From a virus (taxonomy: Duplodnaviria > Heunggongvirae > Uroviricota > Caudoviricetes): a DNA stretch of 6,969 nucleotides. Below the pieces are notes generated by a model, which saw nothing but the letters and a program-made list of their open reading frames with translations, was not told where the DNA came from and made no database searches. Numbering within the stretch: the first letter of the stretch is position 1; the number at the start of each line of letters is the position of its first letter. Positions 170 to 4,780 of this stretch are shown here, piece by piece. The position numbers and the translations under genes are program-made. The DNA lies in IMG/VR virus record IMGVR_UViG_3300003155_000382. One strand, given 5' to 3'.

Positions 170-691
170 ATGATAAAAAAAATACTTGCTGTAACTGCGC
201 TACTTAGTGGAGCCGTAATGGCTGATACAATGACGATCCCTGTAAATCTCGTTTCCTCAGAAGGAGTAGGGAAAAATATAGGGGAAATAACTATTTCAGA
301 AACCAGCTACGGATTGCTGTTCACTCCTCATCTGAAAGAACTGCCACCAGGGTTACATGGCTTTCATATCCATGAAAATGCCAGTTGTGATCCCGGTCTG
401 ATTAATGGAAAAAAAGTGCCAGCTCTTGCTGCCGGTGGGCATTATGATCCTGAACAAACAAATAAACATCTTGGGCCGTACAATCCGGAGGGCCATCTGG
501 GTGATCTACCAGCACTCTATGTCAACTCAGAAGGAAATGCAGAAAACCCGGTTCTGAGTCCAAAAATAAAAAAAATAAGCCAGATAAAAGAACGGGCGAT
601 CATGATTCATGCCGGAGGGGATAATCATTCCGATTCACCTGCTCCTCTGGGGGGTGGGGGCGCAAGACTGGCATGCGGAATAATTAAATAA
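170..691 (+). CDS. sodC: Periplasmic Cu,Zn superoxide dismutase (SodC family), prophage-borne copy
   Basis: 173 aa with an N-terminal signal peptide (MIKKILAVTALLSGAVMA, AxA-type cleavage site). SodC hallmarks are present: HGFHIH copper-ligand motif, GGHYDP...KH...GHLGDLP zinc-loop histidines and aspartate, the disulfide cysteine pair (NASCDP and RLACG), and the C-terminal GGGGARLACGIIK with the conserved arginine. The gene is AT-rich, consistent with horizontal acquisition. Confidence 0.9.
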   Translation: MIKKILAVTALLSGAVMADTMTIPVNLVSSEGVGKNIGEITISETSYGLLFTPHLKELPPGLHGFHIHENASCDPGLINGKKVPALAAGGHYDPEQTNKHLGPYNPEGHLGDLPALYVNSEGNAENPVLSPKIKKISQIKERAIMIHAGGDNHSDSPAPLGGGGARLACGIIK

Positions 692-733: not shown

Positions 734-940
734 TCAGCGACCAATAACCACAACCTGACCACCATCCCCTTCATCTGCCGTGCTGATCTCCTGAGAGACC
801 ACACGTGACCCCACGCGCAGTTCACCGTACAGAACAGGCAGAACATTGCCCTGGGCAACCAGGTTATTCAAAGGCATCCTCAACGAATGGGATTCCCTCG
901 TCGCTCTGTTGAAGTCTGAAATGAAGATACACGGAAACAA
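734..940 (-). pseudogene. Short GC-rich ORF, probably a remnant of a longer gene; function unknown
   Basis: 68 codons with a TTG start and an in-frame stop only 4 codons upstream. GC content is clearly higher than the flanking AT-rich sodC and intergenic DNA. I do not recognise the protein sequence. Confidence 0.2.
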
Positions 941-1044
941 AGCACCAGAGACTTACAGAAGAATTAGCGAGCTACGCAAGGACTAACCACAGCCTCACAC
1001 TCAATGAGGCCTGTTCATTTCTCAAGATATCCAGACCTACCATT

Positions 1045-1067
1045 GCCGCATCAATGCGGCTTTTCTT
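1045..1067 (+). terminator. Rho-independent terminator between the sodC unit and xis
   Basis: GCCGCA-TCAA-TGCGGC stem-loop (1045-1060) followed directly by TTTTCTT (1061-1067). On the opposite strand there is no T-run, so it is unidirectional (+). Confidence 0.6.
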
Positions 1068-1091
1068 GCGTGTAATTGCGGAGACTTTGCG

Positions 1092-1310
1092 ATGTACTTG
1101 ACACTTCAGGAGTGGAATGCACGCCAGCGACGCCCAAGAAGCCTTGAAACAGTTCGTCGATGGGTACGCGAGTGCAGGATATTCCCTCCTCCGGTTAAGG
1201 ATGGAAGAGAGTATCTGTTCCACGAATCAGCGGTAAAGGTTGACTTAAATCGACCAGTAACAGGTAGCCTTTTGAAGAGGATCAGAAATGGGAAGAAGGC
1301 GAAGTCATGA
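1092..1310 (+). CDS. xis: Excisionase Xis, lambda type
   Basis: 72 aa, [72 protein letters not shown]. As far as I can recall this is essentially identical to phage lambda Xis. GGAG Shine-Dalgarno at 1080-1083. The 3' end overlaps the int start by 23 bp, as in lambda. Confidence 0.95.
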   Translation: MYLTLQEWNARQRRPRSLETVRRWVRECRIFPPPVKDGREYLFHESAVKVDLNRPVTGSLLKRIRNGKKAKS

Positions 1311-2358
1311 GCGCCGGGATTTACCCCCTAACCTTTATATAAGAAACAATGGATATTACTGCTACAGGGACCCAAGGACGGGTAAAGAGTTCGGATTAGG
1401 CCGAGACAGGAGGATAGCAATCACTGAAGCAATACAGGCCAATATTGAGTTGCTATCCGGGAACAGGCGTGAGTCACTGATAGACAGAATTAAAGGCGCT
1501 GACGCAATCACTCTTCATGCGTGGCTTGACCGATATGAAACAATCCTCAGCGAGAGGGGTATCAGGCCGAAAACTCTACTCGACTACGCCAGCAAAATCA
1601 GGGCAATCCGAAGAAAATTGCCGGACAAACCGCTCGCAGACATATCAACGAAAGAGGTGGCAGCAATGCTAAACACCTACGTAGCAGAAGGTAAAGCGGC
1701 TTCCGCAAAATTAATCAGGTCAACCCTTGTTGACGTTTTTCGTGAGGCAATAGCCGAGGGGCATGTGGCTACGAATCCGGTAACAGCAACCCGCACAGAA
1801 AAATCAGAAGTAAGGCGTTCAAGACTGACAGCTAATGAATATGTCGCGATTTACCATGCAGCCGAACCGCTCCCAATCTGGCTGAGGCTGGCAATGGATT
1901 TGGCTGTCGTTACAGGGCAGAGAGTAGGCGATTTATGCAGAATGAAATGGTCAGACATAAACGACAACCATCTTCACATTGAGCAGGGTAAAACAGGGGC
2001 TAAGCTCGCCATTCCGCTGACGCTAACGATTGACGCGCTCAATATCTCATTGGCTGATACACTACAGAAATGCAGGGAGGCCAGCGGCAGTGAAACAATA
2101 ATTGCATCAACGCATCACGAACCGCTTTCCCCGAAAACAGTATCTAAGTATTTTACAAAGGCGAGAAATGCATCTGGACTCTCATTTGATGGAGACCCGC
2201 CAACATTCCATGAACTGCGCAGCCTGTCGGCGAGGCTATACCGGAATCAGATTGGCGATAAGTTTGCTCAACGTCTTCTCGGGCATAAATCAGATTCAAT
2301 GGCGGCGCGTTACAGGGACAGTCGCGGGCGGGAGTGGGACAAAATTGAAATATCATAA
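1288..2358 (+). CDS. int: Tyrosine site-specific integrase, lambda Int family
   Basis: 356 aa, the same length as lambda Int. The first ~55 residues (arm-binding domain) match lambda Int as I recall it. Catalytic residues are conserved in context: R in [10 protein letters not shown] in [13 protein letters not shown] and R in [12 protein letters not shown] in LLGHKSD, and Y in AARYRD. AGAGGA Shine-Dalgarno sits upstream of the ATG. Confidence 0.95.
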
Positions 2359-2979
2359 TGGTTTTATTTTGATTAATAATGACCAGCGCACATTAACATA
2401 TTGATAATTAATGAAATTTTTAATATACAACTTCCATGTCATAAGTTGTTGCAGACTGACTGCGCGCATTCCGTTGTCAGTTTTTGTGGCGCTTCCGGTG
2501 TGGTAGATGATGTAACGTCCCATCCATACCATTAAGTGCTGGTCATCGCCCTGATCGAAAAAAATCATATCGCCAGGCAACGCCTGGTTTATGTCCTGGC
2601 CAATAAAATGGCTGTTGTACTGAATCAAATTAATTGCGGTCACATAGGGGCCAGTTTTCCCATTCCCCTGGCTCCAGTTTTGTGCCAATTGCCGCTGTTC
2701 AGGTGTTAGCGCCATCTCCGGCGGCAGATATTGGTTAGATATGCTGTTATTTTTTAGCCATTTACTGTCATGAACTTTCAACGCCTCGTTTGCCGCAAAG
2801 CGCACCAGACCCGCGCAATCCTGCTGATACCAACGTGGGCTTGGCCCCTGACGAAGTTGTTCCTGGGCAATGCGCACAAACCAGGCACGAAATAGTCCCG
2901 ATTGTTCGACATCCAGCATTTCGCTATGGGCGAAAAAACAAAACAGCCAGCAAATCAGCGCCGACAACACGCGCCTCAT
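2353..2979 (-). CDS. yfaT: YfaT-like DUF1175 family protein; 3' end runs through the att core into prophage DNA
   Basis: 208 aa. Assigned from position and size: in E. coli K-12 the gene order is gyrA-yfaA-yfaT, all on the same strand, and YfaT is about 207 aa. Its start overlaps the yfaA stop (ATGA), suggesting translational coupling. The last ~26 codons are extremely AT-rich and lie on the phage side of the att core. Confidence 0.7.
2356..2448. other. Prophage attachment site at the int-proximal junction (attL-type: P' arm, IHF site and core)
   Basis: Starting at the int stop codon, the sequence is colinear with the lambda P' arm as I recall it from lambda attP and attL, with identical segment lengths. 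It contains three arm-type-like repeats (2356-2386), an IHF-like site, and a core CAACTT(2428-2433)-ccatgtcat-AAGTTG(2443-2448) with the same 6-9-6 architecture as lambda CAGCTT-N9-AAGTTG. Confidence 0.7.
2394..2406 (-). promoter_or_regulatory. IHF binding site candidate (H'-equivalent)
   Basis: The reverse complement reads TATCAAtatgTTA, a full match to the IHF core consensus WATCAANNNNTTR. It lies at the same distance from the core as the lambda H' site (TATCAAtttgTTG). Confidence 0.5.
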
Positions 2980-4673
2980 AATGGTTGCCAGCTAACAGGC
3001 AACCACTGCCAGGCAGCCCCGGGCTCCATCTTGACCAGTTTCATTGCATAACGGGGTTGTTGCGATAAAGCGTCCAGCTTCGGCATTAATAAAGTCTGCG
3101 CTGCGTTATAAAAAACAGGCTCAAGGTTTTTTGGCAAGCTGGCCAATGTTTCATTACGCAGTAATTTTGCCACCCCTTGTGGATTGATATAGACCGGAAT
3201 GACGCCATCAGCCGGTATTACATCCACCATTGCCGGGCGCGTTTTGTTCAGCGTTTGCAGCGCGTTATTGACCAGCGTGTCGTCAAGGGAGAAAATCAGC
3301 GTCTTGTTCTGCATCGCCAGCGAGACGCGGAAAAAATAATCGGACATCAGTTGTTCTGGTTTCGCCGCCTGGGCTGCGGGATACTGACCATAACGGGAGC
3401 TGACTTCACGCCGCCAGATTTGCGCGTCGCCCTGTTGTGTTTGCGTTACCGGCAACACACCTTCAGGTGCTTTGCTCTCGAGGGCCCCGATTGTTTGTGT
3501 AAACAGCTTCCCTGGCAGTTGCGCTTGCTCGGCAGCGCCATCAAATTGGCCAACAAACAGGGGGGTTTGCAACCTGGAATCTTCATACCAGCATAGCCCG
3601 GCAGCACCGTCCAACATCCCGCTCAATTTGTCGTTTTCCTGGCTGATATGCGAGAGCATCTCTTCGGCAATACCGTGCGAATAAGGCAGCGCCACGCAGA
3701 AGCTGGCACCAGCAGGCATACTGCGCCATACCGGAGTGAAATCAAAACTGGCATCGACACTGGCGGATTCATCATTCAACGCCAGAAAGCTGCGCCAGCC
3801 ATCATTGCTCATTTCAAAGCGCACGCCAGCAAAAGAAGGAATTAACCGCTGGTAACCTAAACCCAGCAAATTAGCGCTAACCACGATACGCTGGCGAACA
3901 AGTGTTTTTTCAGCGGAGGATTGTAAACGGTCTTCCAGGCCAAAGCTGGCCTCCCAGTGTTTTTTCCCGCTCAACAAATCACTCGCGATCGCCGTGGCTT
4001 CGGTATCCTGCTGGTCGCCTTTAAACAACATATCTGTGCTGGAAAAAACCAGCATCTTGTCCTGATAACGGGTAAACAGCAGTGAGTTATTGCCGTTATA
4101 GCGCAGTTGATAAACAGGTATGGTTTCATTATTAATCGTAATGCTACTGATCTCCGTCTTACTTAACTGGCTGTCGCTGGTGGCGGCAAACAGTAACGGC
4201 TCCAATAACTTACTCAAACCACTGCGTTGAATCAGCACGATATAATGCGAGAGATGGCCTTGTTTGTCGTGCCACAGCGCCGCTTGCGCTGGCTGGTCTA
4301 ACAATGAAGAAAAGAGCTTATCTTTCAGCGTTAAATCATGTTCATACACAATGCGCCGAATACTACCTTCAATCCCCAGACGGTCAGCATGGTTCTGATA
4401 ATAAAAAACAAAATCTTCACTTAGAACATCGCGCAGAAAAGGAATTGTGAGGAGGTCTTTGGGAAGCTGGCTTAACGAATCGCTGTCGAGAAAGAGGTCC
4501 GGCTCATTGAGATCGATTTGCAGATTGTTGTGCACCACCAGAGGCGACAACGTTTTTTCTGGCCCACTGCCAGCATATTGCAATGCCCAGACACCCGCGG
4601 AAAGCAGTGCTATTGCGCCAAAACCTACAAGACCATAAAACCGCCAGCCTTTCGCCCTTTTTTCACCACTCAT
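2976..4673 (-). CDS. yfaA: YfaA-like DUF2138 family protein (N-terminal membrane anchor)
   Basis: About 565 aa, lying immediately downstream of gyrA as in E. coli K-12. The likely start is the ATG at 4671-4673, which has an AGGAA Shine-Dalgarno 7 nt upstream; the GTG two codons further up (4677-4679) has no usable spacing. The N-terminus has a hydrophobic segment ([22 protein letters not shown]). The stop overlaps the yfaT start. Confidence 0.7.
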
Positions 4674-4780
4674 TGCCACATTCCTTGTGTAAAGCCAGCC
4701 ATTTTTTACGGGCGATGCAAAATTTTCTCGCGCCTTAATACAACAAAAGCCCAGACTTTGCAGCCTGGACTTTTCAATTC

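Follow-up and report, generated by a model that had tools for sequence, protein, structure and literature searches.

A probable attL of a decayed lambda-family prophage, with an HK022-type integration module and an overlap of its own, in the 3' end of yfaT of Escherichia albertii

A stretch of 6,969 nucleotides from the IMG/VR virus record IMGVR_UViG_3300003155_000382, here called the window, carries from left to right sodC, a scrap of a tail assembly gene, a scrap of an early open reading frame (ORF), xis, int and an attachment (att) region at 2356-2448, followed on the minus strand by yfaT, yfaA and gyrA. The att region is most probably (at about 85%, in our estimate) the attL (B-O-P') of a decayed lambda-family prophage with an HK022-type integration module, inserted in the 3' end of yfaT, with the 7-base pair (bp) overlap as the main change. 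Judged by its flank, the host chromosome is that of Escherichia albertii, since the flank is 99.1% identical to the type strain, NBRC 107761, and the chromosomal part of the window only ~92% identical to E. coli. Assembly GCA_027566075.1 matches the whole window at 99.94% identity.

At 2428-2448 lies a 21-bp core, CAACTTC-CATGTCA-TAAGTTG, in which two inverted core-type half-sites flank a 7-bp overlap, as in a lambda-family attL. The C' half-site (CAACTTC, 2428-2434, plus strand) is phage-derived and reads CAACTTA in lambda and HK022. The B half-site (TAAGTTG, 2442-2448, plus strand; CAACTTA when read towards the overlap) is bacterial, lies inside yfaT and is found in the empty yfaT of K-12, E. 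albertii NBRC 107761 and other Escherichia. Between them the overlap, where crossover would take place, is presumably CATGTCA (2435-2441, no strand assigned), its limits and the exact cleavage positions being placed by position relative to lambda and HK022. The initial annotation of this DNA had pointed out a non-lambda core. It was right to do so, and its hexamers, its sequence and the lambda core that it quoted (CAACTTAGTATAAAAAAGCTG) are correct; however, it took all nine bases between the hexamers for the overlap, which is the central 7 bp. The pattern CAACTT-N9-AAGTTG occurs only once in the window, at 2428-2448, where 0.01 occurrences would be expected (200 shuffles). The specificity is not that of lambda, whose overlap is TTTATAC, nor that of HK022, whose overlap is TTCACCT (AGGTGAA) and whose location is torS-torT; in the window, the overlap reads CATGTCA and the flank on the host side is yfaT. 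The match to HK022 extends as far as CAACTT (2433) and that to yfaT sets in at 2431, and the block common to attL, attR, attB and attP is the 11-bp CTTCCATGTCA (2431-2441).

From the int stop codon to the core runs the P' arm of attL (2356-2427, no strand assigned), phage DNA that is colinear with the P' arms of lambda and HK022. The distance from an anchor at the 3' end of int (GGGACAAAATTGAAAT, window 2336) to CAACTT is exactly 92 nt in the window, in lambda, in HK022 and in the Stx1a-converting phage NIID112183 (the Stx1a phage below). Ungapped alignment with lambda and HK022 places three arm-type Int sites in tandem on the plus strand, named after the established anatomy of lambda attP: P'3 at 2355-2364 (ATAATGGTTT; lambda ATAATGATTT), which overlaps the int stop codon, P'2 at 2366-2375 (ATTTTGATTA; lambda ATTTTGACTG) and P'1 at 2376-2385 (ATAATGACCA; lambda ATAGTGACCT). 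At 2394-2406, on the minus strand, there is a match to the H' site of integration host factor (IHF): the plus-strand letters TAACATATTGATA read TATCAATATGTTA on the minus strand, which fits WATCAANNNNTTR, and the offset is that of the lambda H' core TATCAATTTGTTG. IHF would presumably bind there. Three tandem arm-type sites and an H' site at a fixed spacing from the core are what a lambda-family attL has, and the alignment and the 92-nt spacing confirm the lambda-like P' arm, with these same elements, that had been claimed from the letters alone.

In BLAST comparisons, window 2330-2460 matches HK022 attP at 82.7% identity (E-value 9e-22) and lambda at 77.1% (6e-11). Over the P' arm itself, HK022 is 81.9% identical, the Stx1a phage, which is of the torS type, 75%, lambda 66.7% and the yfaT prophage of E. 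coli PE164 100%. Could this simply be AT-rich DNA after a gene end that happens to look like an att arm? The arm is indeed rich in AT, and an inverted repeat of 6 bp shows little by itself, but the two E-values, the identical 92-nt spacing, a core pattern expected 0.01 times and a phage/host homology breakpoint that falls exactly at the core refute a chance resemblance, whose probability we consider negligible. In the P' arm of the O26:H11 strain 11368 (locus ~46802-46900), a T run is one T shorter, so that CAACTT is 91 and not 92 nt from the anchor; the variant may be real or may stem from a sequencing error in the homopolymer.

The other att sites were found in related genomes. In the uninterrupted yfaT of K-12 and of the E. 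albertii type strain, the corresponding position reads GTCCTTC-CATGTCA-TAAGTTG, which is attB. The initial annotation had placed a prophage in the 3' end of yfaT and had staked this beforehand on what the uninterrupted K-12 gene would hold at this position; the empty sites in K-12 and in the type strain bear the placement out, and it stands unrefuted. Among the genomes returned by the scan, the empty site (gggtgtcCTTCCATGTCATAAGTTGttgcag) is present in K-12, the E. albertii type strain, E. whittamii and other Escherichia (E. coli, Shigella flexneri and Escherichia sp.). The second core copy that had been predicted for the far end of the prophage is there as well: in GCA_027566075.1, CTTCCATGTCA occurs again 7,074 bp away, with GAAGGAG and a P arm after it, which makes this second copy attR. 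E. coli PE164 also has attR, and its P arm is colinear with the P arms of HK022 and lambda. A core repeat at the other prophage end and an empty attB in relatives are both properties of a lambda-family attL.

The attB and its flanks are also found outside Escherichia: in a yfaT homologue of Enterobacillus tribolii, ~66% identical overall, the 18-bp attB and the flanking sequence are conserved (locus 1531-1548). Because they are kept in a homologue of such low identity, the phage's target is a strongly conserved stretch of yfaT, which encodes ...LMTWKD....

The attP core predicted for this system is CAACTTC-CATGTCA-GAAGGAG (CAACTTCCATGTCAGAAGGAG). An exact search found it between a P' and a P arm in 12 IMG/VR contigs, and the intact attP arrangement was present at a coverage of at least 80% in 456 of 5,426 complete E. 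coli genomes. The IMG/VR copies were considered as free phage genomes and rejected; they are fossils, each an int pseudogene plus attP, in O157:H7-type prophages. In O157:H7 strain Balcarce_14.2 (locus 8136-9505; the one O157:H7 genome examined), an int pseudogene and an intact yfaT-type attP lie directly beside nleA, in a prophage that also has nleH1-2, nleF, espM1 and nleG. This attP looks like the fossil of a yfaT-type nleA phage that was captured by another prophage. A search of INPHARED returned no deposited phage with the core and the P' arm together, every match ending at CAACTT or earlier.

Which integrase goes with this att region? The xis gene (1092-1310, plus strand, 72 amino acids) encodes a protein identical to HK022 Xis and different from lambda Xis at one residue (S59 vs G59). 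The int gene (1288-2358, plus strand, 356 amino acids) encodes, by Pfam and alignment, a heterobivalent tyrosine integrase of the HK022 type with Arm-DNA-bind_1 (PF09003), SAM-like core-binding (PF02899) and Phage_integrase catalytic (PF00589) domains and with R212, K235, H308, R311, H333 and Y342, the complete R-K-H-R-H-Y set of catalytic residues. It is 97% identical to HK022 Int, 99% to that of the Stx1a phage and 76% to lambda Int, although its first 55 residues are the same as lambda's. At the nucleotide level, window 1000-2433 matches HK022 at 95.8% identity and the int region of the lambda/434/HK97 type at ~78%. Identities to lambda, HK022 and the Stx1a phage are, respectively, 96%, 97% and 99% in xis, 90%, 97% and 100% in the arm-binding domain of int, 64%, 98% and 99.7% in its core-binding domain and 69%, 95% and 97.9% in its catalytic domain. 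Int has the HK022 states D99, P282, K283, K287 and R319, where lambda has N, S, G, R and E; substitutions at these five positions reportedly convert lambda Int to HK022 specificity, in the lambda/HK022 Int chimera work of Weisberg and Yagil.

With Xis at 100% and Int at 97% identity to HK022, the integration module is, on these comparisons, of the HK022 type and not lambda-derived. The initial annotation had instead treated lambda as the closest relative. It had described a lambda-identical arm-binding domain and Xis next to diverged remaining domains, and that pattern is present in the first 55 residues of Int; however, Xis is one residue off, and the pattern is the difference between lambda and HK022, not one specific to this site. 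It has long been known that these two phages have similar arm-binding domains and Xis and diverged core-binding and catalytic domains. The corresponding alternative is a lambda derivative that kept its arms, Xis and arm-binding domain while its core-binding and catalytic domains diverged to recognise the yfaT core. It would account for the lambda-identical first 55 residues, the single Xis difference, the divergence of the rest (76% overall) and a core unlike lambda's. But the domains that diverged match HK022 (97%) and recur at 99% in phages that use torS-torT, none of the residues in Int 1-355 goes with the yfaT site and the P' arm resembles HK022 more than lambda. A lambda derivative is thereby largely refuted, and we regard it as very improbable.

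Why, then, does the target differ from that of HK022? HK022 attB lies between torS and torT (PMC6814406) and can be read as AACCTTT-TTCACCT-AAAGTGC. The Stx1a phage, with an Int 99% identical to that in the window, is integrated at torS-torT as well, its attL abutting torS. Among the Ints compared, no residue in 1-355 separates those of the yfaT type (n=2) from those of the torS type (n=3). The earlier proposal that protein divergence caused the retargeting does not hold, as an almost identical Int serves torS-torT. Because no residue in Int 1-355 separates the two types, the retargeting seems to be a matter of the att DNA, above all of the overlap (CATGTCA vs TTCACCT), with the protein unchanged; we infer that the specificity of Int is unchanged too. 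Experiments on HK022 have found that its 7-bp overlap can be arbitrary as long as it is identical in both partners (PMC7736782). Identity to the torS-type Stx1a phage drops abruptly, from 98-100% across int to 75% in the P' arm, which may mark a recombination boundary close to the int stop codon, with the att region exchanged as a module separate from int.

The half-sites vary around a common pattern. In HK022, C', C, B and B' read CAACTTA, ATCCTTT, GCACTTT and AACCTTT, and in the yfaT type they read CAACTTC, CTCCTTC, CAACTTA and GTCCTTC, respectively. All four yfaT-type half-sites thus keep the ACTT/CCTT pattern of HK022. This fit would also suit an ordinary HK022-type phage with the TTCACCT overlap that inserted accidentally at a secondary site in yfaT, the junction then being inherited vertically. 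Secondary sites with core-like half-sites are indeed used by lambda-family integrases. An accident of this kind is nevertheless very improbable as an account of the window: attL and attR share one overlap and neither retains TTCACCT, an intact attP with the CATGTCA overlap exists, and the junction is shared by E. albertii and 177 E. coli genomes, including O26, O103 and a pig isolate, at the ends of both full-length and decayed prophages. It is plausible that a secondary-site event was the remote evolutionary origin of the CATGTCA attP.

Several points weigh against the identification of 2356-2448 as an attL of an HK022-type module redirected mainly through its overlap. The attR lies outside the window, the evidence for it coming from the genome that is 99.94% identical to it, and all support is comparative. 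Identity of the P' arm to torS-type arms is only 75-82%, and two half-sites depart from HK022 in the base that adjoins the overlap (C' ends in C, not A; C begins with G, not A, when read from the overlap). Of the five specificity substitutions in Int, N99D alone was confirmed in a paper. Finally, the C-terminal end of Int differs (S356 in the yfaT type vs D356-K357) and is encoded inside P'3. Half-site, arm or C-terminal Int differences may contribute to site choice.

For the HK022-type attL, the following course of events can be proposed. An attP with the order P' arm, CAACTTC-CATGTCA-GAAGGAG, P arm would have recombined with the 21-bp GTCCTTC-CATGTCA-TAAGTTG near codon 183 of yfaT, with strand exchange across the 7-bp overlap CATGTCA. 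Int would occupy the three P' arm-type sites and the core half-sites, and IHF would bend the arm at H'. Int and Xis would be those of HK022-type phages that normally use torS-torT. The core half-sites would retain the ACTT/CCTT pattern read by HK022 Int, and a change in the att DNA, mainly in the overlap, would change the target, as the overlap must match between attP and attB.

The insertion has consequences for yfaT (2353-2979, minus strand), a DUF1175/MagC gene that is fused to phage DNA, as seen from Pfam DUF1175 and from comparison with the C-terminus in the type strain. The last 24 native residues of YfaT are replaced by 25 unrelated residues from the P' arm, through which the yfaT frame stays open for 25 codons (2353-2430, minus strand), and the fused protein has 208 residues vs 207 in K-12. 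The Pfam DUF1175 match covers residues 20-182 only, corresponding to profile positions 20-202 of 226. The open frame in the P' arm could be due to chance or to selection for a tolerated tail. The insertion also splits yfaA-yfaT from the downstream alpha-2-macroglobulin gene. The stop codon of the fused yfaT adjoins that of int on the opposite strand. Integrated elements have been listed before as disrupting yfaT or regulating its integrity, in comparative surveys (PMC3603311, PMC7192596); in a literature search for yfaT as an integration site, only these two surveys named the gene, without att detail, and the supplements of PMC7192596 are without mention of yfaT. As to the neighbourhood, the placement next to gyrA in the initial annotation was right about the 3' end of yfaT; yfaA (2976-4679, minus strand) intervenes between yfaT and gyrA, which runs on the minus strand from 4822 to the window end.

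What is left of the prophage is a decayed remnant of ~7 kb, as measured by the 7,074 bp between the core copies in the 99.94%-identical genome, with int, xis, attL and attR intact. Its order is attR, an nleA-like gene of 440 amino acids, nleG, a tail-fibre scrap, sodC, the tail-assembly scrap, a joint at ~866, the early-ORF scrap, xis, int and attL. Within the window, sodC (170-691, plus strand) matches Pfam Sod_Cu; the 3' scrap of the tail assembly gene (737 to ~866, minus strand) matches PHROGs 4554 and 32 (tail), only in the C-terminal part of the profiles; and the 3' scrap of the early ORF (846-986, plus strand) matches positions 74-113 of 116 of phrog_1229. For the small ORFs at 737-940 and 846-983, Pfam gave no match, although PHROGs did. 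The two scraps abut at the deletion joint, ~866, and homology to a full-length O26 prophage begins at 866.

Decay has gone further elsewhere. Three genomes that carry the window's exact YfaT fusion lack exactly window 867-2308, that is, xis and most of int. All three retain attL, the P' arm and the final 50 nt of int, and attR was seen in two of them. GCA_028622315.1 is an E. albertii assembly of this type, without int and xis. The left breakpoint of this deletion, 866, is the window's own joint, which suggests a recurrent or insertion sequence (IS)-mediated breakpoint. At the other extreme, O26:H11 11368 has a full-length lambda-like prophage of ~50 kb at the yfaT site, and PE164 has a remnant of ~15 kb with nleA and nleG. 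The same attL junction is present in 177 of the 5,426 complete E. coli genomes, and O26:H11 and O103 strains are among the top whole-window matches. In another assembly, an IS3-family element is inserted between window 990 and 1096.

E. coli 2013C-4187 carries torS-type and yfaT-type xis-int-attL modules together, with Ints that are 96% identical, and it is conceivable that Int and Xis act across its two prophages. A wider proposal would be that the yfaT and torS types share one Int/Xis specificity and act in trans, that the effector islets of E. albertii (sodC, nleG and the nleA-like gene, some without int and xis but with attL and attR) are satellites moved by an HK022-type helper and that the overlap is an address label that evolves independently of the recombinase. 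This proposal is tentative, and we consider it unlikely overall.

What is gained from the yfaT type of attL? It is a further att specificity in the well-understood lambda/HK022 family, at a known prophage site, and involves no new mechanism; its novelty, if any, is that the four att sites are explicitly defined and that an unchanged HK022-type integrase is used. It would provide a natural example of a change of address through the 7-bp overlap and nearby att DNA with the integrase kept, previously known mostly from engineered substrates. It also supplies the exact attB, attP, attL and attR and the recombinase type for a site at which O26 and O103 E. coli and E. albertii harbour effector-carrying prophages, as well as primers and sites for detecting yfaT occupancy or excision. 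An exchange of the attP overlap might be enough to direct existing HK022 Int tools to yfaT.

Among known systems, lambda shares with the yfaT type the layout of int stop codon, P'3-P'2-P'1, H' and core at identical spacing, the first 55 residues of Int and Xis but for one residue. Unlike lambda, whose attB lies between gal and bio, it has core-binding and catalytic domains with only 64-69% nucleotide identity, and other specificity residues, overlap and target. Like phage 21 and e14 in icd, it is inserted in a conserved chromosomal gene, close to the 3' end; unlike these, which rebuild the gene, it shares only 11 bp with its target and does not reconstitute the native 24-residue YfaT tail. HK022 is the closest in Xis (identical), Int (97%), arm architecture and spacing, the CAACTT of C', the ACTT/CCTT half-sites and the colinear P arm. 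The yfaT type differs from HK022 in the overlap (CATGTCA vs TTCACCT), the overlap-adjacent base of C' and C, the P' arm (82%), the last Int residue or residues and a target inside the yfaT coding sequence instead of the torS-torT intergenic region. In the site-affinity (saf) mutants of lambda, an unchanged integrase is redirected via the 7-bp overlap. The engineered 'attP'/'attB' pairs of HK022 (PMC7736782) are alike in that a change of overlap redirects the partner site while the integrase is unchanged. The saf mutants and engineered pairs are laboratory products; the yfaT att type, in contrast, is natural and widespread and has additional arm divergence.

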